A stretch of DNA of 64,000 nucleotides from positions 1 through 64,000 of the IMG/VR virus record IMGVR_UViG_3300028030_000011. One strand, given 5' to 3'. Under the pieces are notes generated by a model. The model made no database searches. It worked only from the letters and a program-made list of their open reading frames with translations, and was not told the DNA's origin. This document shows positions 1 through 64,000 of the stretch, piece by piece. The position numbers and the translations under genes are program-made. This DNA is from a virus. The first letter of the stretch is position 1. Each line of letters begins with the position of its first letter.

Positions 1-14
1 ATATATATAGGATT

Positions 15-78
15 TTGATACGATTAATTTGATATGGATTCGTATCAATTGATACGAATTGTATCAAAAAAGTATCAA
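15..78. repeat. Cluster of TTGATAC/GTATCAA half-sites including a perfect 22-bp palindrome ATTCGTATCAATTGATACGAAT (38-59); operator/parS/iteron-like
   Basis: Half-sites at 15, 29 (one mismatch), 42, 49, 61 and 72, directly upstream of the promoter of the ParB-like gene. Confidence 0.75.
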
Positions 79-81
79 TCA

Positions 82-103
82 TTTAAGGTTAAAATGCTAT
101 AAT
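82..103 (+). promoter_or_regulatory. Host sigma70-type promoter (Campylobacterota-like)
   Basis: TTTAAGGTTAAAATGCTATAAT: TTTAAG element plus extended -10 TGnTATAAT, 35 nt before ATG 138. Confidence 0.7.
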
Positions 104-137
104 ATATTTATTAAGAACCACAAACAAAGGAGTTACA

Positions 138-983
138 ATGAGTAATAAAATAATAGCAATTCTTAAAGATATTGATGAATCAGAAGTATCATATCATAAA
201 ATATCAAGGTTTCAATATCAATGGCATGAGTTATCATATACTGAGCCAAAGATGAGTGATAGTGATTATGAAGCATTGAAAGAGGATATACAGCTATTAG
301 GCAAAGTGCATAATCCTGTACTTATTTATGAGAATAAGATACTTGATGGAAGGCATAGACAAAAAGCCTGTGAAGAATTAGACTTTTTGATGCCTATCAA
401 GAAACTTACTAAAGAGTATAACATATCAGACTTAAGAGAGGTAGTTAGGAGTATTCATATGGCAAGAAATAAGACACAAAATCAAAAAATTATACAAGCA
501 TACAGATTCAAACAGACAGTATCTAATGTTACTTGGGAAGATGCTGCGCAAAGACATGGAGTAAAAGTATTAGCAATTAAAAGAATCAATACTCTATATA
601 ATCTTCTTCGAGATAATAATCATGAAAAAGATTTTTATGAAATCATGAGATTATTTGAGTATGGTATTGTATTGAATGAGAAAAAATTTAATTGGTTAAA
701 TAAAAATACTTCATCTTTTAGTGGAGCTATTAAACAGTTTAAAGATTATCTTGATAATTTACAATCAAAAATAAAAAATAAAAATATTGATACAACTGAA
801 ATAAATCCTGAGACAGGTGAGACATTAAAGAAAGATGTAAATCCATTTATAGAGGAATATAATGATGAAAATGCACAATTAAAAAAAGAGATTGAACGAT
901 TAAAAAAAGAAAATGAACAATTAAAGTCACAATTTGAAGAGAAAAATATGACTAAATTGGTTGATAAAATTAAAAACATCTAA
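138..983 (+). CDS. ParB/Srx N-terminal domain protein with C-terminal coiled coil
   Basis: LKEDIQ..NPVLIY..ILDGRHRQKA ParB-N motif; AAGGAG RBS. Confidence 0.7.
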   Translation: MSNKIIAILKDIDESEVSYHKISRFQYQWHELSYTEPKMSDSDYEALKEDIQLLGKVHNPVLIYENKILDGRHRQKACEELDFLMPIKKLTKEYNISDLREVVRSIHMARNKTQNQKIIQAYRFKQTVSNVTWEDAAQRHGVKVLAIKRINTLYNLLRDNNHEKDFYEIMRLFEYGIVLNEKKFNWLNKNTSSFSGAIKQFKDYLDNLQSKIKNKNIDTTEINPETGETLKKDVNPFIEEYNDENAQLKKEIERLKKENEQLKSQFEEKNMTKLVDKIKNI

Positions 984-1030
984 CCAAATGAACCACCTCT
1001 ACCACAACAACTAAATAGAAAGGAAAAATA

Positions 1031-5177: not shown

Positions 5178-5636
5178 ATGGAAGAAATGAACCCTGATTA
5201 CGAAAGATATTATGATGGTTACGGTGTACCATATCAGCATTATAGCAAAAGATATTTTAATCTTATTAGCAAAATATATCCACCAGAGGAGAGAAATTTG
5301 AAAGCACAAAATACAAAAATAAATTCTGCATATAGAAAAGAACTCATTGAAGCTGTAGGTATTGATGGATATGTACTTATGGAATGGTTCGTAGAAAGAG
5401 TTACATACAGATATTTTAATCCACAAGATAATAAACATATAGGAGATTCATTAGGACTATCACCAAAAAAAATAGAAAGAATAAAAAAGAAATTAAAAGA
5501 GCATAATTATCTTTTAATAGTAAAAGTAAATTCAAACCCTGATGTGTATCAAACAATTATGGGTAAATCAGCAATTAAAGCTTATCTTGGAGATAAGTTT
5601 AAACCAAATGAACCACCACAAGATACTATACAGTAG
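5178..5636 (+). CDS. Winged-HTH protein, putative replication initiator
   Basis: Start moved to ATG 5178 (AAAAGGAGG RBS); HIGDSLGLSPKKIERIKKKLKEHNYL HTH. Confidence 0.55.
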   Translation: MEEMNPDYERYYDGYGVPYQHYSKRYFNLISKIYPPEERNLKAQNTKINSAYRKELIEAVGIDGYVLMEWFVERVTYRYFNPQDNKHIGDSLGLSPKKIERIKKKLKEHNYLLIVKVNSNPDVYQTIMGKSAIKAYLGDKFKPNEPPQDTIQ

Positions 5637-5663
5637 ACGATATGTTGATGGTTCAAAAACAAC
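5608..5663 (+). repeat. 56-bp direct repeat, copy 1 (TGAACCA...TGGTTCA hairpin)
   Basis: Identical to 6640-6695. Confidence 0.95.
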
Positions 5664-6040: not shown

Positions 6041-6643
6041 GTGGCTAATGAGTTTAAAGTGTATCCTGTGCATCAAACTTTAGTAGAACAAAGAACTATT
6101 GATGACACAAGAAAATACATAGAAATTATGAAAAGTAAATCTTACAATTATAGAGTCAAATTAATAAAAAAGGATTTAAAAAAGATGAATAGAGAAGGGA
6201 TAGTCATATTTAATTCAATAAGCATGAACTCTGGTAAAGCAGTTCTTCCTATAATGAATTTAATTATTGAAAATACTAATAGGCATAATATGTTATGTAT
6301 TAATAGAACTACTTTTGCAACAACAACTGATTTGGTTAAATTAGCAAAAGTTTCAAGACCTACTGTTACAAAATATATAAAAAAACTTGTAGATAAAAAT
6401 ATCATAAAAAGACATGATAAAAATTTTATGCTTAGTCCATATATCTTCTATCCTAATATTGATGACTTTAACCTCAAAATATTACAAGAGTATTGGGATA
6501 ATGATTTTAAAAAAAGCAAAGAGTCTATAGCTTCTGAAATTCAAGTAGAAATAAACTCTATGCTTGAAGATGCAAAAGAATTTGTAGGAGCTTCAAGAAC
6601 AGAGTTTGAACAATTACAATCAGTTAAAAAAATGACTAGATGA
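6041..6643 (+). CDS. RepL-like replication/maintenance protein (winged HTH)
   Basis: DLVKLAKVSRPTVTKYIKKLVDKNII...FMLSPYIF pattern typical of the RepL family; GTG start with AAAGGA RBS. Confidence 0.6.
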   Translation: MANEFKVYPVHQTLVEQRTIDDTRKYIEIMKSKSYNYRVKLIKKDLKKMNREGIVIFNSISMNSGKAVLPIMNLIIENTNRHNMLCINRTTFATTTDLVKLAKVSRPTVTKYIKKLVDKNIIKRHDKNFMLSPYIFYPNIDDFNLKILQEYWDNDFKKSKESIASEIQVEINSMLEDAKEFVGASRTEFEQLQSVKKMTR

Positions 6644-6695
6644 ACCACCACAAGATACTATACAGTAGACGATATGTTGATGGTTCAAAAACAAC
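6640..6695 (+). repeat. 56-bp direct repeat, copy 2
   Basis: Identical to 5608-5663. Confidence 0.95.
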
Positions 6696-7220: not shown

Positions 7221-7271
7221 TGAACCACTCTAAATAGTGTTACCTATACAATGAGTCTATTGAGTGGTTCA
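7221..7271. terminator. Hairpin TGAACCACTC...GAGTGGTTCA
   Basis: Inverted repeat just after stop 7216. Confidence 0.55.
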
Positions 7272-16522: not shown

Positions 16523-18655
16523 ATGAAAATAGATGATATAGTAAATGAAATAATCAAGGCTGGTAAACGTAAAACAGACCCAATGATTATCAAAGCTACT
16601 CTTCTTTATTTTGGAGCTATCTTGTTAAATAGATACTCTATTAGAAAAAATATAGATACTCTTCCAAATAGAATAAATGCATATTTTCTTGTATTTGCAG
16701 TATCTGGTTCAGGTAAAAGTTTTATAATAAAAATAGTTGAAAATTTATGTGATTTAGAATCTTATGCAAAACAAAGAAAAACTGTATATGAATATATTAT
16801 GGATTTATCTGAATGTGAACCAGATGACCAAACAATAAAGTTCCTACAAGGTAATGCTTACTCTCTTGGAGTATCAGGAACAAAAGAAGGATTGTTTGAA
16901 TATTGTAAAGCTTATACTACTAGTCAGTTTGGTTCTATAAACATTCAATCTGATGAGATAGGAGATAATATAAATAGTTCTAACGACCTTTTGAACCAGC
17001 TTAAACAGATGTATGATGGTAAACTTCAAAAGAAGATTATTAAAGGCTCAGAAGAAGATTTTCCTGATGATGATATACATGGAATAGTTTGTAATTTTTA
17101 TGGAACTGGTTCAAAATCAGCCATAGATGCAAAAGATAGAAAAAAGCTAACAAATCTTGTTAAATCAGGTATGTTTAGAAGAAGTATATGTATTGATTCA
17201 AAATTACAAGTTGAGAAGAAAATAATGGAAGAAGTTAATTATGAACCAATTCACAAATGGTTCATAGATTTAAATTTAAAGCATAAAAAGTCATTATCAA
17301 ATAGACTTGAAAAGTATGGAATGATTGGAACTTTAGATACTTTTATAAAATTTAGCAATAAAGCTATAGAAAAAGTAGATGATATAGATAAGCTTCTTGT
17401 TCAAAGAGCTAATAAAGATAAAATCAATGACCTTAAACAGATAGATACAGGGTCACTTGATATGATTATTAATATTGCTTGTATCATTTCTTTTTTACAA
17501 GACGATAAAGAAGTTGAAACTATACATCTTGATACAGCGTATCAATTCTTCTTAGATACTAGAGAAACAGTAGAGAAAACATTTGATGATATTCATGCTC
17601 ATGATGAAGCATATAGAGTGTTAAAGCTAAAAAGTTCTCTTACGCATAGTGAAATAATGGATATTAGTGGACTTGATATTATACCTAAAGGTAAAAACTC
17701 TTGGAAAGATACAATAGAATTAGTTCATGAGCTATGTTATCGTAATGGAGAATATCTTAAAGAGAGTAGTGGCAGGGTTAAACGATATACGATTGAGCCA
17801 TTACCTGAAACTAATTTAGACCACCTAATCTTTTCATTGTCTACTGACGATAGAGGTGCTAAAGCAATTGCATTTAATCCTGTAGAGCTTGAATGGAATG
17901 ATATTGAATATCTTGTTAAAAGTAACAAGGTTGAATCATTTACAACTTCTCATTATAAAGAAAGTAATCATACAGGAGATTATGGTCATAGAAAAGCAGA
18001 ATATGCAATACAAGGGCAAAACGTAATAGCATTCGATATAGATAGTGGGTTAACAATAGAAAAGGCTAGAGAGCTATTTTCAAGCTTTACATATTGTTTA
18101 TATACAACAAAATCACATCAAACAGAGAAAGGAGATTATTGTGATAGATTTAGAATAATATTACCAACAAAACATAAATTTTATGTTACACCTGAACAAC
18201 ATAAAGAGATGATAAAAAATGCTGAAATGGTATTAGGGTTAAAAAGTAATGATATACAAACTAGAAATGTATCTAGGCTTTGGTTCACTAATCAAAATGC
18301 TGATGAAGTAATTATTAATGATGGAGAACTATTTGATATATCAGGAATGATACCTGATACTAATAAATCAGATAAGTTTTTACCAAAACTCAAAGAGATG
18401 ATGTCTAATGTTAATCAGACTTGTGAAATGCAAGATGAAATAACCAATAGAATAAATGGATTTACTAGGTATGCAATGTCTGTAGTAGCAGTAGGTAATC
18501 TTAAAGATACACTATTTAAACTAGGAACTTTCTGTATTGATTTAGGTTATCCATTATGGGAACAAAAGATGATTGATTTTACAAGAACTATTGGCTCTCC
18601 AATGCATATTACAGAAACAACAATAAAATCTCTTAAATCAAAATATAAATTATAA
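16523..18655 (+). CDS. Helicase-primase (N-terminal P-loop ATPase, C-terminal AEP/PrimPol-like domain)
   Basis: SGSGKS and SDE Walker motifs N-terminally; AFDID, YTTKSH, DRFRIILP C-terminally. Confidence 0.7.
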   Translation: MKIDDIVNEIIKAGKRKTDPMIIKATLLYFGAILLNRYSIRKNIDTLPNRINAYFLVFAVSGSGKSFIIKIVENLCDLESYAKQRKTVYEYIMDLSECEPDDQTIKFLQGNAYSLGVSGTKEGLFEYCKAYTTSQFGSINIQSDEIGDNINSSNDLLNQLKQMYDGKLQKKIIKGSEEDFPDDDIHGIVCNFYGTGSKSAIDAKDRKKLTNLVKSGMFRRSICIDSKLQVEKKIMEEVNYEPIHKWFIDLNLKHKKSLSNRLEKYGMIGTLDTFIKFSNKAIEKVDDIDKLLVQRANKDKINDLKQIDTGSLDMIINIACIISFLQDDKEVETIHLDTAYQFFLDTRETVEKTFDDIHAHDEAYRVLKLKSSLTHSEIMDISGLDIIPKGKNSWKDTIELVHELCYRNGEYLKESSGRVKRYTIEPLPETNLDHLIFSLSTDDRGAKAIAFNPVELEWNDIEYLVKSNKVESFTTSHYKESNHTGDYGHRKAEYAIQGQNVIAFDIDSGLTIEKARELFSSFTYCLYTTKSHQTEKGDYCDRFRIILPTKHKFYVTPEQHKEMIKNAEMVLGLKSNDIQTRNVSRLWFTNQNADEVIINDGELFDISGMIPDTNKSDKFLPKLKEMMSNVNQTCEMQDEITNRINGFTRYAMSVVAVGNLKDTLFKLGTFCIDLGYPLWEQKMIDFTRTIGSPMHITETTIKSLKSKYKL

Positions 18656-23182: not shown

Positions 23183-24112
23183 ATGAATGTACTATCATTA
23201 TTTGACGGTATAGGTACTGGTCAATTGGCATTGAAGCATTTAAATTTTAAAGTTGATAAATGTGTAGCTTATGAAATAGATGAATTGCCAAAATCTATAG
23301 CTATGAGACATTTCCCTGATACTGATTATAGAGGAGATGTTAAGGAGTTTAATGTTAAAGATTTTGATTTTAAATTTGACCTCGTAATGGGTGGTAGTAG
23401 CTGTAATGACTTATCAAATGCTATGGCTAATAGAGATGGTATAGTTGGTTCAAAATCAAGTATATTCTTTGAATTTGTACGCATTTTAAAAAGCGTTAAA
23501 CCTAAATACTTCTTATTTGAAAATGTAGGAAGCATGAGTAAAGCAGACGAAATAATTATAACTCAAATGCTTGGATGTGAACCAATAAAGATTAACAGTA
23601 AAGATTATTCTCCTGCTCTTCGTAATCGTTATTATTGGACTAATATTCCACAAGACAAACATGATAATGCATTTAAGAATGATATAAATTTAAATGATAT
23701 TCTTGAAGATGGTTGGTATTCAGATAGAAAGAAAGCTAGAGCATTATTGGCTTCTGATAGTAGACCTCTTACATCTCCTATTAAGATGATGCATCGTTAT
23801 ATTAATACCGGATTTACAACTGTAGTATTCAGAAATAAAGAGATTGCAGATATGATGATTAAAGATTTCAAAGAAAGATTCTATGGGTTAAAAGCCAAAG
23901 ATATTGATATGGAGTCTATTGATAAAAATATATACAGTAGCGAAAATATTAGATATTTGAACCAACTAGAATTAGAATCATGTCAAACTATACCTCATGG
24001 CTATACAGATGGATTAACTAGAAATCAAGCTGCACATGTACTTGGTAATGGATGGACTTGTCTTGTTATTATGAAGCTACTTAACGGAATGGAAATGGAG
24101 AAAACATTATGA
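23183..24112 (+). CDS. C5-cytosine DNA methyltransferase
   Basis: SLFDGIG, GGSSC (motif IV), FENV, RNRYYW, LGNGW. Confidence 0.9.
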   Translation: MNVLSLFDGIGTGQLALKHLNFKVDKCVAYEIDELPKSIAMRHFPDTDYRGDVKEFNVKDFDFKFDLVMGGSSCNDLSNAMANRDGIVGSKSSIFFEFVRILKSVKPKYFLFENVGSMSKADEIIITQMLGCEPIKINSKDYSPALRNRYYWTNIPQDKHDNAFKNDINLNDILEDGWYSDRKKARALLASDSRPLTSPIKMMHRYINTGFTTVVFRNKEIADMMIKDFKERFYGLKAKDIDMESIDKNIYSSENIRYLNQLELESCQTIPHGYTDGLTRNQAAHVLGNGWTCLVIMKLLNGMEMEKTL

Positions 24113-26133: not shown

Positions 26134-26163
26134 TATTTTGAACCACATATAAGAGATGGTTCA
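26134..26163. terminator. Bidirectional terminator / partial copy of cassette repeat R1
   Basis: TGAACCA-CATATAAGAGA-TGGTTCA-TTTTT between convergent genes. Confidence 0.7.
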
Positions 26164-26169
26164 TTTTTA

Positions 26170-26781
26170 TTATGCTAGTAGATTTTTAGCTTCTTCTATT
26201 TTAGTTTCATAGTAAGAAGCTATTTGTTTAAATTCTTCTTGCAATCTTTCAACCTCTGACTTCTGAGGCTTATTTGCTTTACACCATCTATCATAAGCAT
26301 TTCTTACTAAAGAAGAATCATAGGTTGGAGTATTATAAATCATTTTACCAACAGTACCATTTAATTCATCTGGTATTTCTCTTCTAACAGTTATTTTGGC
26401 TTTTGTTTGAGCTAATCCACTCCATACTAAAGCATCCCATACCTCAGTCTCCATTACATCATCTTCAATATCTTCAAATGTAGTACCTATACAACCTCTA
26501 ACACTCATATAGCCATTTTCATATACTTTTGGTTTTTTAGCTATTTTAACAGCTTGTTCTATAGTTGGTCTTAATTCTCCTTTTTTATCTGTATATTTAA
26601 CGGGCTGAAATTTCAGCTCGTTAAATCTTTCTTCATCAAGAGTTGAAATCATTTTATTGAAATCAGAAACTAAATTTTTATTCTCTTTTCCATATTGGTC
26701 AGCTACATCTTTTAATGTCATTTTAAATCCTGCATTTTGCAAGAAACTCTCTGTTGGTGTTAATTCGATTAAATCTTTCAT
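26170..26781 (-). CDS. Cassette A: Rha-like N-terminus (shortened) plus shared C-terminal domain
   Basis: MTLKDVADQYGKENKNLVSDF..Y.DKKGELRP (Rha); AKKPKVYENGYMSVRG. Confidence 0.75.
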   Translation of the reverse strand: MKDLIELTPTESFLQNAGFKMTLKDVADQYGKENKNLVSDFNKMISTLDEERFNELKFQPVKYTDKKGELRPTIEQAVKIAKKPKVYENGYMSVRGCIGTTFEDIEDDVMETEVWDALVWSGLAQTKAKITVRREIPDELNGTVGKMIYNTPTYDSSLVRNAYDRWCKANKPQKSEVERLQEEFKQIASYYETKIEEAKNLLA

Positions 26782-26849
26782 AGATTTATCCTTTAATTAA
26801 AAGTACGGACAATGATAAATTTTGTGAGAGTGAAGTTATGAAGAATCTT

Positions 26850-27032
26850 GTCCAGAGAGTTCTTCAAACTATATATACACTCATTTCAGGTTCAAAAGTA
26901 GTTTAGAGAGGTAAAGTTACCTCTCAAAGAACTCTCTGGACGAGAAATCAATGTATACAAAACAATAAGTTTACTCAATGGTATTCATCTCTGAATACCT
27001 AGAAAGTGGCTTGAACACCATTCAGTAAACTT
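26850..27032 (-). ncRNA. Two tandem structured leader elements (A1 orphan 26967-27032; A2 26850-26957)
   Basis: A2: stem 26874-26887/26944-26957; 15-bp perfect antisense 26927-26941 versus target 26850-26864. Confidence 0.7.
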
Positions 27033-27040
27033 TATAACAG

Positions 27041-27083
27041 TATATCACATCTATTTTAAGAACCACCTATAAGAGATGGTTCA
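27041..27083 (-). repeat. Cassette repeat R1 (terminator hairpin plus promoter), copy 1
   Basis: Minus strand TGAACCATCTCTTATAGGTGGTTC-TTAAAATAGATGTGATATA(C/A)T; also at 27888 and 28830. Confidence 0.95.
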
Positions 27084-27133
27084 GTTCTACCTTTTCCTGA
27101 CTGACTCGCCTGACTGTCGAGCCAATAATTTAA

Positions 27134-27736: not shown

Positions 27737-27778
27737 GATATTTTCTTTCCATAACAATAATTCTAAGTTTTGATTGAT

Positions 27779-27881: not shown

Positions 27882-27887
27882 CAAAAT

Positions 27888-27930
27888 TATATCACATCTA
27901 TTTTAAGAACCACCTATAAGAGATGGTTCA
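27888..27930 (-). repeat. Cassette repeat R1, copy 2
   Basis: 43 bp identical to 27041-27083. Confidence 0.95.
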
Positions 27931-37800: not shown

Positions 37801-39754
37801 TTTGTATTTTGTCTCTATCATTGGTTTTATCAATTATACGGATTAGATTATCAAATTCAAGCTCTCCATCAATATCTTTAAATTTGACTTCTCGTTTGGC
37901 TACTCCACCATCAGGAGTAGGTTCATTTTGAGACATCGTTGTTTTCTTATTTATAGATGTCCTTAAATCAGACGATAATACATTTCCAAGTCTATTAAAC
38001 TCATCTTCTTTAGTTGGTTCAGGCTCTGTAGTGGCTTTTGAACCATCTGTAGAAGGAGTATCATTAGGAGATGGTTCATTATCTTTACCAAAGAACGGTG
38101 TTCCATCGTCATTAGTTGAAATAGACTCATAAAATCTAGCTCTCTCTTTAGCATCTGCTTCATCTTTAATAGCTTGTTGCTCTTTTTGGTACGCTCTATC
38201 CTCCCCTAATCTTCTAGTAGTATCAGGAAGTGAATGTACACTACTCATACCAGCACCAATACTTAGACCTGCTAAAGCACCTTTCAGTACAGTATCAATA
38301 GTCTTTTGGTCTTTAGGGAAGTTATTGCCAAATGCATCAGTACCAAGAGTTGTAGCCAATAACTCTCCATAAGTTTGAACAGCTTCTGTAGAACCCTCCC
38401 ATGCTCCACCTGTAGCTGCTCTTTTTGATAAATCAATGGCTGATGTAAGCATCTCAGTAGTTAATGCTCTTTGAGCTGTAGGAGATGAACCAGCTAGTAA
38501 CTTCTTAATATTATCAATATTAGATGCACCTGCTTTACCTTTTATTATACTTTGAAATGCAAGTCTATCTAATGCATTCTTAGCCAATAAGAAAGTAAAT
38601 GTATTTATAGCACTACCAGATGTTTCTCCATCAAGATTATTCTTAGCTCTTTCTTCTAATGCTGTATTCGTCTCTCCAAGAGTATATGATAATAGACCAC
38701 CATTCTTTAACGCTAAACCTTTAGCACCTTCAAGCATAGCTTTTGTCTTTTCTATTCCTTGAAGTAATTCAGAACCACCATTCACCAATCCTTTAGATGC
38801 ATTAAGCAATGCTCCAGATTCACCTACAGGAGTCATCATTAAAGCCATATCTCCAGCACTCTCAGAGAATAATGCATCAGCTTGTTTAAACGCTTCCCAT
38901 GCTGCTTTAGCATATTTCATTTTATGAGAGTTCTTTGAGTTCCAACCAATCTTTAAATTATGTAATCCCTCATCAAGTGCTATATTTGATTCGGTATCAT
39001 CATAGCTATTTAGTCTATTTGAATACTCTTTATCTTTTAGCTTATTGAAGTATGTGCTGTCTCCAAGATATAATGCATCTCCTTTTTTACTCCCTAGTGC
39101 AGTATCAATTAATGCTGATGTAGTATCTAATGCAAAATCTCCAATTGATGAACTAGCTCTACCAAGTGATGCGTAAGCACCTTTTAGGTCATTCCATGGT
39201 CTTCCGAGAAAACCTAACCCATCATCTGTAGCATCATTGTTATACTCTTTTAAAGCTTCTAGCTCTTTAGCTCTATCATCTTCACCAAGAGCATATAATT
39301 TTTCTATCTCCTTATTGGCTAATTCTTGACGTTTTCTATCGTATTTATTTGAAGATACAGCTTTACCACTAGCAATAGACAAATCAGCTAATTCAGGTAT
39401 ATCAACAAGTAATCTACCATACTTATCTCTTTTTCCTGTATAGTTATTGTATATATCTTTTGCTGTTATTTTGCCAGTATTAATCATCATCTCTAACATA
39501 CTACTACCAGTAGTATTGTCAGGTGTTATACCAGATTCATTTTCTAATTCTTGTGCTTTTTTTGAATCAATTGTTTCTAATGAATCATAACCCTTGAATC
39601 TAAAAATTCTACCTGTTATATTATCCTTTACAGTATCACCATCAATGACTTCTAATGTATTGTCTTTTACGCCAAGAGACTCATCAATTCTGTCATCAGT
39701 AGATGAACCAAGTTTTTGTAACATTTCATCAAATTTATCTAAAGATTGTGGCAT
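28874..39754 (-). CDS. N4-like virion-encapsidated RNA polymerase (3626 aa) with N-terminal thermonuclease-like domain and HExxH motif
   Basis: ERMHL..NPQSNKLHR, motif A ETDAKQSG, motif B RNFFKTPIIAKGYTAG, motif C YIFDA; size; no Cys seen on reading; HELVH. Confidence 0.85.
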   Translation of the reverse strand: MPQSLDKFDEMLQKLGSSTDDRIDESLGVKDNTLEVIDGDTVKDNITGRIFRFKGYDSLETIDSKKAQELENESGITPDNTTGSSMLEMMINTGKITAKDIYNNYTGKRDKYGRLLVDIPELADLSIASGKAVSSNKYDRKRQELANKEIEKLYALGEDDRAKELEALKEYNNDATDDGLGFLGRPWNDLKGAYASLGRASSSIGDFALDTTSALIDTALGSKKGDALYLGDSTYFNKLKDKEYSNRLNSYDDTESNIALDEGLHNLKIGWNSKNSHKMKYAKAAWEAFKQADALFSESAGDMALMMTPVGESGALLNASKGLVNGGSELLQGIEKTKAMLEGAKGLALKNGGLLSYTLGETNTALEERAKNNLDGETSGSAINTFTFLLAKNALDRLAFQSIIKGKAGASNIDNIKKLLAGSSPTAQRALTTEMLTSAIDLSKRAATGGAWEGSTEAVQTYGELLATTLGTDAFGNNFPKDQKTIDTVLKGALAGLSIGAGMSSVHSLPDTTRRLGEDRAYQKEQQAIKDEADAKERARFYESISTNDDGTPFFGKDNEPSPNDTPSTDGSKATTEPEPTKEDEFNRLGNVLSSDLRTSINKKTTMSQNEPTPDGGVAKREVKFKDIDGELEFDNLIRIIDKTNDRDKIQTIIDNSPIIRNTGTITKMSLSKLSKEELLQTLTRARDNFKTKQSNTEPVTPNATNEYPEPQTPTTEPSTQQETTVVNEPPKQDTAKKIDTKRAYHTVQSKMPNYHQVMGKEVKTVEDASNSYNEVDNLEKEFHDKIGKDAVKEIDNISNEIQNVITDEEYDALYDKENPKVPKSLKDKGYTLQDIDNILNIKQVLDSIQTAKASLKSVVDNNPITKNSISDNESANISAFMDMPNVDTIRTEDKSVQEQIDKSKEYNQVKDKYQVSKEIFTGDNNNVGISQWESRLSDATPKQIEESGYKRFVGQMNDKAIRFKQALVESRATGKRVSLGVNSLGTEEYVDANHNGSVKLVDRIEREAKAVNESYNNFLKSRGGIPSETSITNEPSQQDTKEDKQIKEDKKVVGSHISNIEKASTIDEAKDAFAKGLQDLQNRKLANQYANELKKSFNTKKKELTPVKEDKRASRLERKIDELQAKLDGIYQTKDGKWKKRYKGVQKEINDKKKKIAKLEKDLETINKRIENTKKFKKGKKSKLNKDKKSEILPSLREVIVEKIKQFVKEINSLITKLFKNKEQIQKELDSLNKELSALIELQVKSKQYRTNEVSRKQNINVLMSEYKKKLKATGKLTDGFIAKINTIDKGFYNKLQKMKLPKGVKFGLMKAFETWDLISQSIEGTQGNDYSTKDKEIQYFNNIVRPLIKQARELVQNISDRGEIFAMDFNKEDSDKYNEMLNGLDENTLVNLVTFVAIDGMMNQGGEMFNENTDEDIATLLGLNSEHDVTVAMKSRFKYGKLQSNIISSMSNLMNEYISLQSNNPLAKERFGSAIALLATHLLRTSNLANVEQFSMTMKEFNAYRAIPYSTDSNKRVNFLRANDKSPIRGKGKAVLKKVFRMHLPEERTTPHEIVKDEAINKQQQAPRQIKQEIIDLYQELGEKEFRDYLRTIMGYDFKFANTAGIYSHTSKHASIKGKNLQIDDSIDTLMEVIETIGNTPMYYKYKRASEERMHLVAELINPQSNKLHRFLTHNINSKRTVDIKDEGRMLIWKSAILDSFGMKSENMKPDEILEEFGKLLLDSELMSYLNDKSIYPPIELVQKYGEGAYTLQGLVELKKFVNKKGDIFETTLEKETDAKQSGSTLQSIFYFNPLDSKSVEMLHKGGIYTNQTDTTKNTDYVGLDNYEESGIEMHNRLQDKDNDYEHNRKPEPPKKELKTVNEKNAYYAKVARYNLFNNFFKPMLESWVVSDTLSKGSEALRQARNFFKTPIIAKGYTAGDKSIQDSKFDEMIDDFYTKIEDIANGKSTKQEIQLVVQMVQSIVNFNKDSNGKEVKLTINGKVQESQFNDENIQELMNHLNERLHSLENPTNTNKYNYNLNDFEFTAKQLATLRTNYRNTLGKVITDSINKVLAPFKQGTEITQRVSNLQNKYFLDEFFRRLDAYHKEHGFISKQVINEITNKLIKDGIAPVLTTFEGRQGELMKRGFNDQINNIIKGKNYQVKVATKGKDRHLMSTQTIGVTSWIDIGVRTPALSTLMTDSGVLADTIKNTSQENIGLYIFDAVLSAEGGAKQYNKSVNKLIDSGYSPFVEVLKNAKIAFNNYEWTKENINAMLPKSVHDMKVDNKIIPYTEYATDRLFRFYESLDKDKLSKKQIDSMMIGTLSTVKVGDNGSIYFDPISIDFHIELNQLNRRILKDIVTTIEHSVGVDERYVKNESNDFKPIDTTEHKKIYDKYKEETNEKLGQSESLTGLNNEINNYTPKTKTTANDLNYEHLMKNGSNPELSKIELEDVLEAFDKIPVRKLESLTGYALVRAVNEIMKDSGIEIIQLDKTKLNSHLTKLKKAKQEINNTKQSLDTNEEFKPYFTFKVNKENIIKSFEKIKQWSNDVISSEYSNKLSNVLSSIIAPVMETIVVAVGKTDSMSYGSASGSNVAKIAIANQGSDNMSMSAQEVYVHELVHNIFDGALKDANIFVNQITDMMKELKQQHGKDIYKLFLPKDGVYTVEDEQLAKRMAKHVFGGKGDVSEFAAYGLTNKNFMNNLSGMNTILNKGNGSILSNLVNIVTSSLKKLTMLLTNGRIDLDMQSKLQTLVKQSVGITIENENKVFNGVYKALRFAGDKYNENIKPNVNKLAFFYHSKTLKIRSDLIKDNKSSVFHIIEYMSKDSDSLKRNISKFIVGDTKTIAKVLAIMAMNNIPFSKKEFGYAIGDIISKGIDSMSKARIDKEGFLNNIVDELQVLGDNIFKTAKDTSIEVQELRNSIKEVDIVREKLRTNTHEFINEKIQYMGLNEYEKSLLGNLLNSSKVGNLLDVGYSIDQILSLIENPNEEIRRLEKLVPKKSIPHIKKLVKYRLTHDENTKFRNIHVIATRFDFSKKNEMTALASLLGIKNYKKEFLSKVTKDKNAFHDLMIMTNSYEREMLEQFYHDNPDLVQDGLAIQNSSKVNSVVNILDSNKDEIKRVRELGGERIKIIKNPFSPGNIHVYSLTPEMNSYTRGALVYGEKSVSQDIDKLYFELYGRARPNFVKIHNTEYVFNRNGSRYDYDPLSFEEKKKYLKYSYNIADIYANQRARGFEKQKAKEVNIRVIDSIVRLGLEDNETVDKFVDKTDNKEWIKISAPFASKGFENKVSEYDDIWYMLPQDTRDYIVDKYKGRFYIPANGNTKNIFLGSRDSSISSIFNDIPTMKKVAKFAEDFWKELMGLWKATVIIKYPLTLLSNFVSNLFLTKSKGYSLRDIYAKQKEGLLYLNDYMRTDDLLKQEELKRDSGLLYDEELITDLQSRLNQNKIRSLIDDGLLSARIEDITINKAFESLKPIRDAIDKVEEILPEKVVKIGRELYLAEDTNYFKLMYHFTQASDFTARYAQIELEKENNTNKSYQQIYDEALDDFVQYDIPLGKAVRWADQVAWFPFIKYYLRMQKVMSRLLRENPKTVLAIEAFEKVVYDIATPFENYWLLMTPDEKMRNPFGNIEDLIIPAPVHIINDML

Positions 39755-41184
39755 TATTTTATCCCTTTTATAATATCTTCCAATTTTCTTCTATCTTTCT
39801 TATCTAAATCCATTTTATTCATAGCATCATTTATTTTTTTGATATTTTTTTCTCTATCTCTTATTCCTTTTTCCTGCTTTTTTAAATTGGCTACTTTTTC
39901 AGAAGTTTTCATATTTTTATAATCATATATTGCATTAGCAACGATTCCTTTATCATCAGGCGTATTTGCACCAAGAAGTTTCATTATTTGAGCTATGTTT
40001 GGTTTTCTATTTTCTTGTTTAAATTGAGGTAAATCTTTTGTATTTTTAATGGCATTTTTCACGTATGCTTCATAATCTTTATCAGCTTCATCTCTATATA
40101 ACGCTTCAATTTCATTTTTCATAGACCATTGTGTTTGAAATTTATTTGTTGTTACAACTTTACCTTTTCTCATTTTATCTATTTTATTTTTTAGGAATTT
40201 ATTCTTTGGTAAAATAACTTTATTATCAACAAGCCATTTCTGTCTCTCTTTATATGATGTAGGAACATTAGTTTCAACTCCATGAGTGTATAGTAGTTTT
40301 GCTAAACCAGCTATTGAATCAGCTTTAGCCTTTCTGTCGCCTTTACTATTTTTATTATTGATATTCATATCTTTATTATATTGAAGCATCCCATCAGTAA
40401 AAGGTTGAGAATCTTTTGGTTTAACAGTACCATTACTATTTGTGATAACATCTTTTGAGGTGAATCCATATTTTAAATAACTTCCTGAACGAGATAAAGC
40501 ATTTAGTCTACTATTAATATCTTCACTCTTTGCACCTAACTCTTCTCTCAATTTAAGTGCTTCTTCTCCTGTAACCTCTCCATTTTCATAAGCTATTTTA
40601 GCTCTATTTGTTCTTTCAATAACATCCTTTAATTCATTTTTTAATTGCAATTCTTCTGCTAAATTATCAGCTTGTTTACTTTTAATAGGAAGTATTTTAT
40701 CACTTAGTTTACGTTCATTACTTTTTATTATTGATTTATCAGAAGAGTAATTTGCTTCATTCTGTTTAATCTCAACATCTAAAGGATTTGTTTTTTCAAG
40801 TTGATTATATTTTTGAATCCCTGTATATAATTTATTTTTTTTGATTCTAACATCTAAAGGATTTGTCAATTCTGCTTGGTCTATTATTTGCCTCTCCCTC
40901 TCAGCTTTTAACGCATCCATTTTAGCTTTAGCAATTCTAGCATCATTATTAATTGAGAATTGCAACAATGACTTTCTGTCAACTTGACCATTTACGTTAA
41001 CATGTTTACCTGCTCTTATTTGCTCCATTGCATCAATAGTATTTGACTCTATCTCTCTATCATATATATCTTTTAGTGTAGAACTTACACCTGCTGTTGC
41101 TTTAGTAAATTGATTTATAGCACCTGTTATATCACTTCTGACATTGCTATTAACATTGCTCCATCTTATTGGATTTCTAGGCAT
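39754..41184 (-). CDS. Internal virion protein (N4 gp51 position)
   Basis: PIRWSNVN N-terminus, no Cys seen, coupled to vRNAP; promoter TGTTATAAT at about 41214-41222. Confidence 0.55.
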   Translation of the reverse strand: MPRNPIRWSNVNSNVRSDITGAINQFTKATAGVSSTLKDIYDREIESNTIDAMEQIRAGKHVNVNGQVDRKSLLQFSINNDARIAKAKMDALKAERERQIIDQAELTNPLDVRIKKNKLYTGIQKYNQLEKTNPLDVEIKQNEANYSSDKSIIKSNERKLSDKILPIKSKQADNLAEELQLKNELKDVIERTNRAKIAYENGEVTGEEALKLREELGAKSEDINSRLNALSRSGSYLKYGFTSKDVITNSNGTVKPKDSQPFTDGMLQYNKDMNINNKNSKGDRKAKADSIAGLAKLLYTHGVETNVPTSYKERQKWLVDNKVILPKNKFLKNKIDKMRKGKVVTTNKFQTQWSMKNEIEALYRDEADKDYEAYVKNAIKNTKDLPQFKQENRKPNIAQIMKLLGANTPDDKGIVANAIYDYKNMKTSEKVANLKKQEKGIRDREKNIKKINDAMNKMDLDKKDRRKLEDIIKGIK

Positions 41185-41258
41185 AACACATCCTTTAATG
41201 CTTAATTATTATCATTATAACACAAAGCTTCTATGATAATAAAAATAGCTATAATTTT

Positions 41259-41330
41259 AAGTCATATAGTAATAATTGTAGTGATATTTTTCCCTTTTTT
41301 AATAACTACAAAAATATTACTGTATGGCTT
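41259..41330 (+). ncRNA. Long hairpin with CU-rich loop after a TATAAT promoter (candidate sRNA)
   Basis: AAGTCATATAGTAATA/TATTACTGTATGGCTT stem, loop TTTTTCCCTTTTTT. Confidence 0.4.
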
Positions 41331-41384
41331 CTAATATTTTTTATGGTAATATGTAAATTAAATATATAAAAAGGTTATACAAAA

Positions 41385-41870
41385 ATGACAAGAGAAGATA
41401 TAGAAAGAGAGCTGCAATCGTTATCATGGAATAAATTGAAAACTTATTGTAAAGACAATAACTTAGATATAAAAGGTCTTAAAAAAGAAGAGGTTATAAA
41501 TCTAGCAGTAAGAAAAAGACTTGCTGATGTAGAAACATTAAATTCTGATAAAGCTACTGATATAGATGATGACAATCTGACTCCACTTCAAAATATGACT
41601 TTAATGAAAACTGCTACTATTCAAAATCTAAATCCTTCTGATGCAAAATTACCATCAAAAGTAGTAACTGTTGGTAATATGGAATATGGATTCCCATTAC
41701 CAAGTTATGTTGTTCAATTTGGTATGAAGCAGAGACTACCAAATGGTATTATTAAATATCTACAAAAACAAGAATACAGAAGTTCTAAAAGTGTAAGAAA
41801 TAAACAAGGTGTACCTGTTACTGTTAATGTCATGAATCCATATTATCAAGTAATAATCCACCCTGAATAA
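41385..41870 (+). CDS. N4 gp55-like protein
   Basis: TIQNLNPSDAKLP..VTVGN motif; synteny. Confidence 0.55.
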   Translation: MTREDIERELQSLSWNKLKTYCKDNNLDIKGLKKEEVINLAVRKRLADVETLNSDKATDIDDDNLTPLQNMTLMKTATIQNLNPSDAKLPSKVVTVGNMEYGFPLPSYVVQFGMKQRLPNGIIKYLQKQEYRSSKSVRNKQGVPVTVNVMNPYYQVIIHPE

Positions 41871-41884
41871 TAAGGATATAACTA

Positions 41885-42925
41885 ATGGCAGCGAATCAAG
41901 ATGTAGTTGACACGTATAATGCTCTATTGGACGCAATAGATAGCAGGACTCTTACATGGTTAAATGATAAGATTATTGACAAGAAAAAAAGAGTTGAAAT
42001 TATATCTGCTCATTTTGCACCATTTGCAACAGAAGCTTTTACATGGCAAAAAACAAAAGCTGAAATAAGTAGTATTGACTATGAAACAAATACTATTTTA
42101 CCACTTACTGCTACAAAACTTCAATTAGAATCAAAATTAATTAAATGTCAAGGTGATACATGTTGTTATGAACTAGAACATCTTCTTCCTGAACAAGTGA
42201 ATAAAGTGTTAGCAGAAATATCACAAATAGAATGTGCAACTTCTAAATGTACTTATGAAGTGGAACATTTACTACCTTCACAGAAGAGTAAAATAGAGTG
42301 TGAAACATCTTTATGTGGTATACAGGGTTCTGAATTACAATTAAATGGTACTAGCAATAGAGCATTGAATACAATTAAAGGTGAACTGTACACTAGGCAA
42401 AAAGAAGGGTTTACTGATAAGCAACAGCAAGAAATGCTATCTAAACTTATTGATATATGGACTATTACTGTATCACAAGAGATTAGTAGTGAAGATGCAC
42501 AGATGAACCTAACAAAGAGAGATTACAGTAGTGGTGAAATCTCAGAAGTAGAATGTGCAATAAATAGTGTTGCTCAAACAATTGATGCTTTAACATGTGT
42601 AAATGGTGCTTCTGGTGTATTAGCAATAACAAGCTATCCACAAGAGGCAGGTACATTAAAACTATTAAAAATGGAATTTACAGAGGGAACAGGATTAATA
42701 CTACATGGTAGAGGAGTAGTTGGATATAAAGCTAGATTCTTCTTCATGGTTGATGATGAACAAGATGTTACTCTTGCTAATATTAGTAATTCAGGTGGTG
42801 GATTTAAAATTGTAGTAGATGGTGTACTTGGTTCAAAAATAAAAAAATATGATTTATACACAGTTAAAGAGTATGATGACTCTGGAACATATACAGGCAA
42901 TCAAATTAATGGCGTAATTGGATAA
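41885..42925 (+). CDS. N4 gp54-like structural protein
   Basis: KGELYTRQKEGF..KLIDIWTIT motif; internal ELEHLLP repeats. Confidence 0.55.
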   Translation: MAANQDVVDTYNALLDAIDSRTLTWLNDKIIDKKKRVEIISAHFAPFATEAFTWQKTKAEISSIDYETNTILPLTATKLQLESKLIKCQGDTCCYELEHLLPEQVNKVLAEISQIECATSKCTYEVEHLLPSQKSKIECETSLCGIQGSELQLNGTSNRALNTIKGELYTRQKEGFTDKQQQEMLSKLIDIWTITVSQEISSEDAQMNLTKRDYSSGEISEVECAINSVAQTIDALTCVNGASGVLAITSYPQEAGTLKLLKMEFTEGTGLILHGRGVVGYKARFFFMVDDEQDVTLANISNSGGGFKIVVDGVLGSKIKKYDLYTVKEYDDSGTYTGNQINGVIG

Positions 42926-48100: not shown

Positions 48101-48270
48101 GATATTACAATGTATAATGTATTGAGCCAGTGTACAACTTCTCCCCAGTTAATGCGTTGGCTCATAGATGATATTTTCCTTGTGTGTGTGTTTCATTTTT
48201 TTTCCCACCAAAGAATAAGAACTCCTTTCGATTTTGAAATTTATTTTGAACCACCTAAATGAGTGGTTCA
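48096..48270 (+). ncRNA. Candidate sRNA of about 145 nt with its own promoter and terminator
   Basis: TTTAAG..TGTATAAT promoter; TGAGCCA/TGGCTCA hairpin with TCTCCCC loop; terminator TGAACCAC/GTGGTTCA 48247-48270. Confidence 0.45.
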
Positions 48271-60953: not shown

Positions 60954-60963
60954 TTATTATCCT

Positions 60964-61779
60964 TTATGCATTATTCCAATCATCTGTAGCTTCTGTGGAA
61001 GTAATATTGGTTGTATTCGCTGCATCATCAGGAATCCATAAACTATTTGTATTATCCCATTTCAGTATTTGATTATCGGTAGGAGCATTTGTTGATGTAT
61101 CGACATCTGATAAATCGTCTATTGCACTTACATTCCCAGCATTAGCCATTTGGTCATCTACATACTTTTTATTAGCTATTTGGTAATCGGTAGTAGGAGC
61201 TGAGCTAGGAGTAATAGGAAAGTCTCCAAATGTTTTAACACCGTTTACTGTTTCAGCTCCTGTATTGTGAACCACTCCACTATCATCTGCTTTTGCATTT
61301 AAAGCTGTTTGTGTAGCTGTTGATACAGGCTTATCAGCATCACTTGTATTGTCTACATTACCTAATCCTACATCTGATTTAGAGTAATCACCTGACTGAG
61401 GTGTTACAGCTCCTGTTCTACCGTTAAATGAACTTACACCACTACTTGGGGTAGTAATAGCTCTCCATGAACTAGCTTGTGTTAAATCATTATCAATTGC
61501 AATATAATCTTTTGATTCATCTGTTCTTGTACACCAATCACCCTTTTGTCCTGTCAATGCTAACATTGCAGTTTGGTTTGCTACTTCACCTAAAAAATCA
61601 CTTATTGTTATATCTGGTACTTGTGCATTAGGAATCTTCCCATCAGCTCCAAGTGAAGCGTATCCATTTGCTACACCCTTATCACTTGTACTTTGTTTAC
61701 TATTGGTTACTGTTTTAATTACAGGTAAATATGTTTGAAATTGACTTCTTACATACGCTTTTAAATCTATTGCTGCCAT
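60964..61779 (-). CDS. Tail fibre-like protein
   Basis: GVANGYASL, VSSFNGRTGAV, DVGLGNVDNTSDADKPVS, ANKKYVD, DLSDVD. Confidence 0.75.
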   Translation of the reverse strand: MAAIDLKAYVRSQFQTYLPVIKTVTNSKQSTSDKGVANGYASLGADGKIPNAQVPDITISDFLGEVANQTAMLALTGQKGDWCTRTDESKDYIAIDNDLTQASSWRAITTPSSGVSSFNGRTGAVTPQSGDYSKSDVGLGNVDNTSDADKPVSTATQTALNAKADDSGVVHNTGAETVNGVKTFGDFPITPSSAPTTDYQIANKKYVDDQMANAGNVSAIDDLSDVDTSTNAPTDNQILKWDNTNSLWIPDDAANTTNITSTEATDDWNNA

Positions 61780-61794
61780 TATATATATCCTTTG

Positions 61795-63135
61795 TTATGA
61801 GTTAACCCAATCAGCATCAGCTTCTAAATTTGTTATTGGATTATTTGCAATTGTTATAGCTTCCCACTCAGGAGTTACGTTAGCTCCTTTTGATGTTAGC
61901 ACCTCATTATTATTTCCTACGGAACTATTAACTGATAATCCATTCTCTGATAGTATTGTAACCAATCCAGTATTGTCAACTTTTACATTTGCTGTTTTAC
62001 CATTACCAGAAGATTCAATGTCAGTAAATGTATCATTTAACCTAATTCTACCATTAGTTTCTTCAAATTCTAAACTATGACCATTGAGCGTCAATGTTCT
62101 ATCACTTGTCAAAGTTCCATCTTGTGTGTATAAATTAGCAGAAGATGATATATTCTCCCATGTATACACACCTGCTGTAGCACCTGCTGTAAGCACTTTA
62201 CCACCATTGTTTGTACCATTTGCTGGTACATGAAGATTCCCATCTCCACTTGGATGAGTATAGTTGTTTGCATTACTGTCAATACTGTCTAGCTTTGTCT
62301 TATCAGTACCAGACATTAGACCAGCTTCTGTTGTTGTAGCTTGTGGTAATATAACAACATTGCCTGTACTAGAATCAATGCTAAAACTAGTAGATGTTTT
62401 ATTTGTTACTGATAGATTTGTATCTCTTTCAGGATTATCCATTGGAATAAAATTAGTTCCATTCCAAACTAATAATTGACCATTTTGAATAGGATTTGTT
62501 GCAATATCAACATCAGGGAGAGAACCTATACCTTGCTCATTTTCATCAACATGAACCACACCATTCACATCTATACTTAATCCATTCCCAATTTTTATAC
62601 CACCTAAAGTAGAATTATTTGCAGTAGGCAATGAGTAATTATTTGCTCCAGATTCAATATTGTTAAGCTTTGTCTTTTCAGTTGTTGTGTAGTCTTCTGT
62701 AGATAAACCCTTACCAACAACCTTATCTACTTTTATTTCATTGATATGTTTACCCATGTGTGCTGACAATGCATCTGTTGTTGCGTCAGATGTTAAAGAG
62801 TCTTCAATGTTTACTGTATTTGGATTAAACCCACCAGTAAAGCTAGAGCCACCATCATCAGTTTCAAGATATTCAATAAGTACAGAACGTTTATAATCTG
62901 TATTTAAATGATATACAAAGAAATCTCCTGCAGTTAATATAACTTGGTCTTTATAATCTAATTTATGGTCTACATCTACATCATGAATATATAAATTTAA
63001 TGATTTGTTGCTATCACTAATGTATAACGCACCTAAAGTTGGTTCATTGTTTGTAATGGAAGCATTCTTCCCAGATGGGACTACTAATTGTTCTTTTACT
63101 CCTGCATAAGGAATTATTTTTGTTTTTCTTATCAT
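61795..63135 (-). CDS. Tail fibre-like protein
   Basis: GKGLSTEDYT..EKTKL, TLGGIKIG, AGLMS.TDKTKLD, NNYTHP. Confidence 0.75.
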   Translation of the reverse strand: MIRKTKIIPYAGVKEQLVVPSGKNASITNNEPTLGALYISDSNKSLNLYIHDVDVDHKLDYKDQVILTAGDFFVYHLNTDYKRSVLIEYLETDDGGSSFTGGFNPNTVNIEDSLTSDATTDALSAHMGKHINEIKVDKVVGKGLSTEDYTTTEKTKLNNIESGANNYSLPTANNSTLGGIKIGNGLSIDVNGVVHVDENEQGIGSLPDVDIATNPIQNGQLLVWNGTNFIPMDNPERDTNLSVTNKTSTSFSIDSSTGNVVILPQATTTEAGLMSGTDKTKLDSIDSNANNYTHPSGDGNLHVPANGTNNGGKVLTAGATAGVYTWENISSSANLYTQDGTLTSDRTLTLNGHSLEFEETNGRIRLNDTFTDIESSGNGKTANVKVDNTGLVTILSENGLSVNSSVGNNNEVLTSKGANVTPEWEAITIANNPITNLEADADWVNS

Positions 63136-64000
63136 ACTATTTTACCTACCATACTAATTGTATTTTGTCTATTATTGGCTAATGTAGCTGTTGCTTCTAA
63201 ACATAATATCGTACCTGTTTCTATATTGTTATCTAATGATATGTTAAAAGAGTGCGTTGCAATATCTCCTTGATAAGAATACTCATCGCCTAATAACATG
63301 TTTGTAATTTTTAAATCCATTGAAACTAAAGAAGATACTCCGTTAATTGATGTGAATAATGTTTTTAATATTGAAGCTCCTCTATGTATTAGAACAATAG
63401 GAACATTGTTAATCATTTCAATTGTAAACCCATCAGTTATAAAAAATATAATAGGAGATGGTTTATCATAGATTGTAAAGTTATTTTTATCCTTAATTAT
63501 ACTATATGTACCATTAGTGTTATGAGCTAGTATGCTGATGCCATTTTCCTCAATATTAATCGTATCAGATACATAGTTATTTATATCAATCATCAATTCA
63601 TTTTTACTACCTATATTATCTATGTATGTATTTGTGTTATCACCAGATGATGTATAAACGTTACCTCTAAGAGTTCTTAATTCAACTTCTGAACCATCTG
63701 ATAAAACCCTTAGTGTATCAATTGGTTGTTCATATTTTTCATATATAACAATAATATTTTGCTCTGTAAATGATAATTGATTCTTATTCGTGAGTTTCAA
63801 GTCAATAGTTACAAGATTTTGATTCAAGGTGTTATCAGCTACTAATACAGATAAGTTTACATTGAAATTCGATAGTGGATTTGCTAATGTTTCACTATAA
63901 ATAGTTTGACCATCTTTATCTTTAACTGTAACTTCTTTTGATGTAATGTAATGGTCAATATTTAATGGAATTGTTAATCCATTTAATGGTGTTATCTCTA
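63132..64000 (-). CDS. Structural/hypothetical protein, 5' end outside the window
   Basis: Frame of called ORF 63132-63827 stays open to the window edge. Confidence 0.65.
   Translation of the reverse strand, partial: EITPLNGLTIPLNIDHYITSKEVTVKDKDGQTIYSETLANPLSNFNVNLSVLVADNTLNQNLVTIDLKLTNKNQLSFTEQNIIVIYEKYEQPIDTLRVLSDGSEVELRTLRGNVYTSSGDNTNTYIDNIGSKNELMIDINNYVSDTINIEENGISILAHNTNGTYSIIKDKNNFTIYDKPSPIIFFITDGFTIEMINNVPIVLIHRGASILKTLFTSINGVSSLVSMDLKITNMLLGDEYSYQGDIATHSFNISLDNNIETGTILCLEATATLANNRQNTISMVGKIV

Follow-up and report, generated by a model that had tools for sequence, protein, structure and literature searches.

GAACCA/TGGTTC as a probable selected genomic word of N4-like phages and a candidate recognition site for their helicase-primase

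The question raised by the viral DNA considered here is why a single six-letter word, GAACCA (TGGTTC on the complementary strand), should be so common in it and which protein may read it. The window that was analysed comprises positions 1 to 64,000 of a virus record (IMG/VR IMGVR_UViG_3300028030_000011) that is 76,293 bp long and has a GC content of 30%. A first-pass annotation, made from the letters alone, had reported well over 100 copies of this word, often in the form TGAACCA, against an expectation of about 16. Our counts gave 138 copies on the two strands of the window, compared with 18.1 expected from base composition and 19.8 ± 4.1 (maximum 32) in dinucleotide-preserving shuffles, so that the earlier expectation was close and the enrichment is about sevenfold over chance. 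The whole genome of 76.3 kb contains 167 copies, and the word is by far its most over-represented hexamer.

1..64000, both strands: field of 138 GAACCA/TGGTTC copies, on average about one per 460 bp, intergenic as well as in each of the six frames

The core of the word is GAACC, which is preceded by T in 67% of the copies, in agreement with the form TGAACCA noted earlier, and followed by A in 84%. In the window phage a G is never found directly before GAACC, because GGNNCC and other palindromes have been nearly purged from this genome (see below). The copies are evenly spread along the genome and are divided 92:75 between its strands, which corresponds to one copy per 0.8–1 kb on each strand. 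No polarity with respect to transcription was observed, 64 of the coding copies being in the sense and 77 in the antisense orientation.

An enrichment of this kind could result from codon or dipeptide usage, and this explanation was examined using gene calls that, for the window phage, are crude longest open reading frame calls. In the whole genome 141 copies are located in coding sequences, whereas protein-preserving synonymous shuffles gave 54.1 ± 5.2, codon-order shuffles 33.9 ± 5.6 and a dicodon-aware Markov null 77.6 ± 5.9. The last of these nulls reproduces the in-frame GAA-CCA and TGG-TTC signal by construction, yet the out-of-frame classes were still 2–5.5 fold high under it. The enrichment therefore persists under the codon-preserving and dicodon-aware checks that had been proposed for it (141 versus 54, 34, and 78). 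All six frames are enriched 2–6 fold, and the frames listed by the first-pass annotation are borne out by the counts (Glu-Pro, 40; x-Gly-Ser, 48; Trp-Phe, 13; Asn-His/Gln, 20), the remaining classes being Val-His/Gln (16) and Arg-Thr (4). Where the peptide permits the word, it is present at 140 of 329 eligible coding positions (43%), whereas codon usage alone would predict 47.7. Although codon usage in this genome is AT-rich, GAA-CCA accounts for 40 of the 50 Glu-Pro pairs and TGG-TTC for 13 of the 17 Trp-Phe pairs. The dipeptides themselves are also affected, with Gly-Ser observed 111 times against 77.6 expected and Trp-Phe 17 times against 8.5, whereas Phe-Trp is not in excess. Lastly, 25 copies are fully intergenic, where 1.8 were expected (14-fold; the maximum in 500 shuffles was 8). 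The three coding nulls together with these intergenic copies rule out a codon or dipeptide artefact, and the enrichment of GAACCA/TGGTTC is no by-product of codon use.

The window phage is, judging from its gene content, a distant uncultured N4-like (Schitoviridae-type) phage, with a giant virion RNA polymerase (vRNAP) and a capsid, portal, terminase and primase of the N4 type. The giant vRNAP gene marks the genome as N4-like, and matches to PHROG families agree with an N4-type gene set.

28874..39754, minus strand: vRNAP, 3626 aa, matching N4 gp50; GAACCA occurs in this gene at its usual density

In tblastn comparisons with coliphage N4 the major capsid protein was 46%, the portal 31%, the terminase 39% and the gp43-type primase 22% identical. 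The proteins detected by this means as common to the two phages were only the primase, vRNAP, capsid, portal, gp57 and terminase, a list from which some homologues may have gone undetected. No close relative was found among deposited phages, where the best portal match was 34–35% identical, and the closest relatives are contigs in ENA, whose portals are 80% and 66% identical to that of the window phage. No tRNAs were found in the 64-kb window.

The same count was carried out on related phages, as had been proposed, and the word proved to be enriched in several of them. In coliphage N4 (NC_008720) GAACCA is the top hexamer (220 copies versus 31.2 expected), often as GAACCAG; it occupies over half of the sites in coding sequence that could accommodate it, it is uniform along the genome, and its strand bias (130:90) is as weak as that of the window phage (55–59% for the two genomes). 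It is also the top hexamer in the Vibrio N4-like phage 1.238.A (122 versus 19.4), and it ranks fourth in Dinoroseobacter phage R7L (87 versus 20.5). An IMG/VR sample consisted of 63 loci with a gene for a gp43-like primase, all of them fragments of 8 kb or more centred on one gene. In this sample the word was at least 4-fold enriched in 31 of the 63 loci and was the top hexamer in 19, with enrichment of up to 21-fold at GC contents of 23–39%, and the enriched uncultured phages span 23–49% GC. The preferred flanks vary even among close relatives: T precedes the word in the window phage and A in a 67%-identical relative, while other lineages show GGAACCAG or GAACCAG. The strand bias was also considered as a clue to the direction of replication, for which it is too weak to be used.

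The word is very probably not a property of the hosts. It was not enriched in a 50-kb sample of E. coli K-12 (17 versus 24.4, or 0.7x) or in coliphage T7 (1.6x). A host-related origin, in which a Chi or uptake sequence of the host was copied or the word acts as a decoy or escape signal for a host defence, could draw on two observations, namely that several of the enriched contigs come from one metagenome series and that the window phage is strongly adapted to host restriction, GATC, GGCC, GGNCC, and CCWGG all being absent. However, phages that infect E. coli, Vibrio and Dinoroseobacter all show the enrichment, as do uncultured phages, while E. coli itself and its phage T7 lack the enrichment and the Chi site of E. 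coli is a different sequence, which makes an origin in the host highly improbable. A link to one host or environment, to which the contigs from one JGI series had pointed, was dropped once the N4, Vibrio and Dinoroseobacter phages showed the word. GAACCA/TGGTTC is best explained as a genomic word that is under selection in the family of N4-like phages. In a literature search no paper was found that describes its enrichment in N4-like phages.

Other N4-like subgroups have different top hexamers that also end in CCA, viz. AAGCCA (in a group of 50–55% GC, about 6x) and AAACCA (4–6x). GAGCCA (13x) and GATCCA (6–12x) occur as top words alongside GAACCA in some of the loci with a gp43-like primase. 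In a Pseudomonas N4-like phage AAGCCA behaves more like a codon-driven word.

Information on how the word is maintained was obtained from a related contig of 27.4 kb, G001, whose portal is 67% and capsid 80% identical to those of the window phage. It contains 59 copies, compared with 13 for a control word, and thus has a density equal to that of the window phage. However, when 15.7 kb of orthologous sequence was aligned by codons, no more than 7 of 32 sites were common to both, a rate not far above the background of 12.7% for any hexamer. Equal density at different positions indicates a continual gain and loss of sites; the density of the word is actively maintained and not merely inherited. 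Another word examined in G001, ACCTGT/CACCTGT, is strand-biased with transcription and was judged to be codon-driven.

The spacing of neighbouring copies provides evidence on the manner in which the word is read. For this analysis 23 records were pooled after removal of near-duplicates, and the null was restricted to positions at which the word is compatible with the encoded protein; of these eligible positions, 1370 of 2740 (half) are used. Same-strand pairs 6–60 nt apart numbered 45, whereas 95.7 ± 8.6 were expected and none of 300 draws was as low. In contrast, opposite-strand pairs at the same distances were as frequent as expected (91 versus 101.4 ± 8.4). The interference ratio was 0.39 at 6–30 nt and 0.56 at 30–60 nt, returning to about 1 beyond 200 nt. 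The window phage alone shows the same effect (4 same-strand pairs versus 13.6), whereas abundant codon-driven control hexamers from the same genomes gave the reverse pair pattern. The coefficient of variation of the per-strand spacing tends to be below that of a Poisson process, although it is marginal record by record.

These results bear upon several explanations. Under a blanket bias of mutation or repair, eligible positions close to each other would be filled to the same extent, and hence the results argue for selection with diminishing returns. A protein that binds duplex DNA is blind to orientation, and the restriction of interference to the same strand thus argues for strand-wise reading. 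Additionally, the lack of transcription polarity and the weak strand bias speak against promoters, terminators, packaging signals and polar signals of the Chi type. It is thus probable that the word is a selected signal, specific to this phage family, which is read one strand at a time.

The origin of the word as a by-product of biased mutation or repair, e.g., a very-short-patch-like repair linked to a C5 methylase, would be compatible with its presence at synonymous sites and spacers alike, and the window phage does encode such a methylase.

23183..24112, plus strand: C5 cytosine methylase, 309 aa (Pfam PF00145, E 2.5e-26)

However, the annotation of N4 contains no C5 methylase and the word is nevertheless present there. 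The deamination neighbours GAATCA (70 copies) and GAACTA (40 copies) are not depleted against the 43 expected, and the conversion of about 50% of eligible positions, with adjacent same-strand ones spared, is not what a blanket process would produce. We therefore consider that such a by-product has very little chance of being the explanation. The first-pass annotation had suggested in this connection a motif-generating repair process that also seeds module shuffling. This suggestion found no support, since near-cognates are not depleted, only some 50% of the eligible positions carry the word and their neighbours are spared. Among the one-mismatch neighbours of the word none was depleted except those containing avoided restriction sites, and no evidence was found that the hexamer seeds module shuffling.

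The C5 methylase was also considered as the reader, and this possibility was rejected because the N4 annotation lacks such a gene while N4 has the word. A role of the word as a methylase or restriction target was likewise rejected, as the word is asymmetric and enriched whereas restriction-type palindromes have been purged. In the whole genome the observed and expected numbers of these palindromes were 0/209 for GATC, 0/38 for GGCC, 0/38 for GGNCC, 0/26 for GGWCC, 0/26 for CCWGG, 1/38 for GGNNCC, 1/38 for CCNGG, 2/38 for CCGG and 1/38 for GCGC, with TCGA and ACGT at about 0.2x; GATC is likewise absent from G001. The methylase is a member of a very large family whose proteins, of roughly 300 aa, come from phages and metagenomes, and the genome that encodes it is nearly free of GG..CC and CpG-containing palindromes. 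The names of its homologues were uninformative as a clue to the host.

The general idea of the first-pass annotation, that the word is a site for a phage-encoded protein, is supported by its family-wide and host-independent occurrence, its turnover and its interference, but the ParB-like, KilA-N and C5 methylase candidates named for this role are not. The annotation of N4 contains no C5 methylase, ParB-like, KilA-N or Rha gene, yet N4 is enriched for the word, and the protein encoded at 138–983 has no ParB domain in Pfam. The vRNAP, which had also been named, may still be the reader, but the word lacks polarity relative to transcription.

The candidate reader to which the evidence points best is encoded by the following gene.

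16523..18655, plus strand: homologue of N4 gp43, with an N-terminal P-loop MCM-like helicase domain, an archaeo-eukaryotic primase (AEP) domain and a C-terminal helical bundle

This protein matches PHROG 2135, 'DNA primase' (E 5e-58), and its 22% identity to N4 gp43 extends over the full length. It contains the invariant motifs SGSGK (residues 61–65, Walker A), DxD (505–507) and SH (531–532, the SxH motif). An AlphaFold (AF2) model with a pLDDT of 84 shows C-terminal helices at residues 614–707, and Foldseek searches with this model retrieved MCM2-7 and the AEP domain of the cyanophage S-2L PrimPol (6zp9_A, E 9.5e-5). N4 gp43 itself carries DUF3987 and PriCT_1. The protein of the window phage had no significant match in Pfam, and a direct sequence search against solved structures gave nothing useful. 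Based upon these motifs and the model, the genome appears to encode its own primase coupled to a helicase.

Among the proteins detectably common to the window phage and N4, the gp43 homologue is the only one whose action is on single-stranded DNA throughout the genome, and the per-strand spacing of the word, 0.8–1 kb, is of the order of an Okazaki fragment. A report on the plasmid pRN1 describes an AEP primase whose helical bundle is required for faithful template-specific priming at the template word GTG (PMC2965215). This enzyme (ORF904) and the one considered here would thus belong to the same AEP superfamily, and each ends in a helical bundle (PriCT_1 in N4 gp43; the modelled helices 614–707 in the window phage). 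The pRN1 word, however, is of 3 nt and operates on a small plasmid, for which no genome-wide enrichment is known to have been reported. Taken together, the sequence, the structural model and this analogy make the gp43-like helicase/AEP primase with its helical bundle the most likely reader of the word, with a probability that we put at roughly 45%. Both the choice of the primase as the reader, in preference to some other conserved protein of the phage, and the choice of the strand whose spelling it would read are inferences.

According to this proposal, selection would have set the word at about one copy per 0.8–1 kb on each strand, mainly through the choice of synonymous codons, partly through favoured Gly-Ser and Trp-Phe dipeptides, and freely in non-coding DNA. 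The gp43-like enzyme would use the word as the starting point of Okazaki-fragment primers, on either strand according to which one is the exposed template. As one strand would be read at a time, a second same-strand copy within about 60 nt would add nothing and be avoided, whereas a copy on the opposite strand would be independent. In its full form the proposal is of a priming code, i.e., a 6-nt start word of an AEP primase-helicase, at about one per kb per strand, for which selection fixes about half of the synonymous opportunities and shifts dipeptide use, and whose spelling drifts between subfamilies (GAACCA, with GAGCCA or GATCCA alongside, and possibly AAGCCA or AAACCA). This wider proposal is more tentative than the identification of the reader.

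Several observations weigh against these proposals. The designation of gp43 as a primase is a bioinformatic annotation, and, as core genes are inherited together, the family-wide distribution of the word would be just as compatible with any other conserved protein of these phages. Despite having the primase gene, 17 of the 63 IMG/VR loci, about a quarter, show less than 2-fold enrichment, and no GAACCA enrichment was seen in the Pseudomonas Litunavirus and the Acinetobacter N4-like phage that were checked. The top words of these non-enriched phages and loci include AAGCCA, AAACCA, GAGCCA and GATCCA. For AAGCCA and AAACCA the same-strand interference is not clearly seen. The proven primase sites of T7 show no same-strand avoidance (23 pairs versus 14.1), indicating that this signature is no known hallmark of primase sites. 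Lastly, MCM and SF3 helicases track along the leading-strand template, which complicates the picture of a lagging-strand primase with an MCM-like N-terminal domain.

The foremost competing explanation is that the reader is some other DNA protein conserved in the N4 family, the word being a Chi-like signal for an exonuclease or a Sak4-type annealase (N4 gp42/gp44), or serving in the nucleation of a single-stranded DNA-binding protein (SSB), in helicase loading, or in packaging or condensation. The evidence for family-wide occurrence, host independence, turnover and selection applies to such a protein in the same way as to the primase, strand-wise reading would suit a translocating nuclease or helicase, and genes for an exonuclease, a Sak4-like annealase and an SSB are present in N4-like phages. 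However, signals of the Chi and packaging types are polar, whereas the strand bias is weak here, and a duplex binder would see both orientations alike, yet only same-strand neighbours interfere. The proteins named are also absent from the short list detected by tblastn as common with N4, although they may have been missed. On balance, we regard a reader of this kind as unlikely, while ranking it well above the other alternatives.

If the gp43-like primase is indeed the reader, the closest parallel would be with the primase of T7. The gp4 primase of T7 recognizes the template core 5'-GTC-3', with 5'-TGGTC-3', 5'-GGGTC-3' and 5'-GTGTC-3' as preferred sites, and makes pppACCA and other primers. 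In our analysis of T7 the primase site TGGTC was 1.9-fold enriched (141 versus 75) and its extension TGACCA was the third-ranked hexamer. In both cases a short word on a single-stranded DNA template would be read by a phage helicase-primase (a candidate here) on both strands at sub-kb to kb spacing, and the words themselves, GACCA/TGGTC and GAACCA/TGGTTC, are one inserted base apart. The two systems differ in that the T7 primase is of the DnaG type (zinc finger and TOPRIM), whereas the enzyme here would be of the AEP type with an MCM-like helicase; the enrichment is also about 2-fold in T7 as against 7–20 fold here, and the same-strand avoidance is specific to the latter.

The recombination signal Chi, recognized by RecBCD or AddAB, resembles the present word in being over-represented, asymmetric, of 5–8 nt and recognized on one strand by a translocating enzyme. 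However, Chi is specific to the enzyme of its host and strongly co-oriented with replication, while GAACCA occurs across hosts, is nearly strand-balanced and is not enriched in E. coli. An identity with Chi sites was rejected on these grounds, the same word being found in phages of E. coli, Vibrio and Dinoroseobacter with no strong orientation bias. DNA uptake sequences, HIP1 and KOPS are likewise short words, over-represented genome-wide and kept by selection or a biased process. They are, however, chromosomal, of 8–12 nt or palindromic (HIP1) or polar (KOPS), and tied to uptake, methylation and FtsK, and to our knowledge none of them is a trait of a phage family. By analogy, the phenomenon described here works like the known selected genomic words and, most of all, like primase recognition sites.

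Although N4 has served for decades as a model phage, its strongest oligonucleotide signal was not found in the literature searched. If the word is a primase start site, it would provide a first handle on the initiation of lagging strands in this widespread phage family, and it would show how far the sequence preference of a replication enzyme shapes the choice of codons and even of amino acids. It would also be the first case in which the recognition word of a primase visibly shapes an entire genome, and the variant words would constitute a natural experiment on the evolution of specificity. The density of the word should also serve as a simple tag for N4-like contigs in metagenomes, and word-free stretches could mark recent acquisitions.

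In the window phage the word has an additional, more local, use in hairpins at the ends of genes. The first-pass annotation had named a number of inverted pairs at module borders, and all of these exist, some at coordinates one base removed from those given (5610/5649, 6642/6681, 7222/7265, 26140/26157, 27060/27077, 27907/27924, 28849/28866, and 48248/48264). The hairpins that they form have predicted folding energies of -8 to -18 kcal/mol, with z from -2.8 to -4.8, and U-tracts are absent.

5609..5655, plus strand: hairpin TGAACCA-N33-TGGTTCA at the stop codon of the gene 5082–5636 (-11.2 kcal/mol, z -2.8)
6641..6687, plus strand: second copy of the preceding hairpin, with identical arms and 33-nt loop, directly 3' of the stop of 6041–6643
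7221..7271, plus strand: hairpin with GAACCAC/GTGGTTC arms after the stop of 6710–7216 (-17.6 kcal/mol, z -3.4)
26139..28872, minus strand: four related GAACCA-N11-TGGTTC hairpins (26140, 27060, 27907, 28849)
48247..48270, plus strand: hairpin GAACCA-N10-TGGTTC at the end of the plus-strand block that meets the minus-strand late genes (-11.4 kcal/mol, z -4.8)

Each of the four hairpins in the region 26139–28872 lies 3–52 nt after the stop codon of a minus-strand gene of the Rha/KilA-N type or of the vRNAP gene. In the genome of the window phage, GAACCA...TGGTTC pairs within 60 nt number 16, compared with 5 expected, and eight of these are at or just after stop codons. In N4 and the other relatives examined there is no excess of such pairs (5 versus 9.1 in N4).

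These hairpins would be the clearest form of a transcription signal, an explanation according to which the word is a pause, termination or RNA 3'-end element for a phage RNA polymerase, and the excess of such pairs, their position at stop codons and their stable folds would all accord with this explanation. However, most copies of the word are single, inside genes and in both orientations; the hairpins lack U-tracts and their excess does not extend to N4 and the other relatives. In N4 the phage RNA polymerase II and vRNAP each serve a limited portion of the genome, but the word is evenly distributed over its whole length. A general role in transcription is thus improbable. The gene-end hairpins represent a lineage-specific extra use of the word and are made of repeated elements. 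In terms of the proposal based on the gp43-like primase, the word would also have been built into these elements in the lineage of the window phage, as a local development and not as a family trait.

The first two hairpins are the two copies of a gene-end element of about 50 nt (5604–5662 and 6636–6694). A further repeat, indicated at 990 and 3904 by the first-pass annotation, was present at both positions.

990..1002, plus strand: GAACCACCTCTAC, 7 nt after the stop of 138–983, with the same 13-mer at 3904–3916

A few minor observations concern the distribution of the word in the window and the genes of the relatives.

39711..42828, no strand assigned: longest word-free stretch, 3.1 kb, covering the gene adjoining vRNAP and two plus-strand genes

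This stretch could be recently acquired DNA, although its GC content is not unusual. In one relative the portal homologue has 1025 aa, an excess of about 350 aa, and contains PF14528, so that an intein-like insertion is suggested. In G001 the gene for the terminase large subunit was recovered by tblastn as two pieces about 970 bp apart (approximately 16415–17388 in contig coordinates), and the sequence between them could be an intron or a homing-endonuclease insert.

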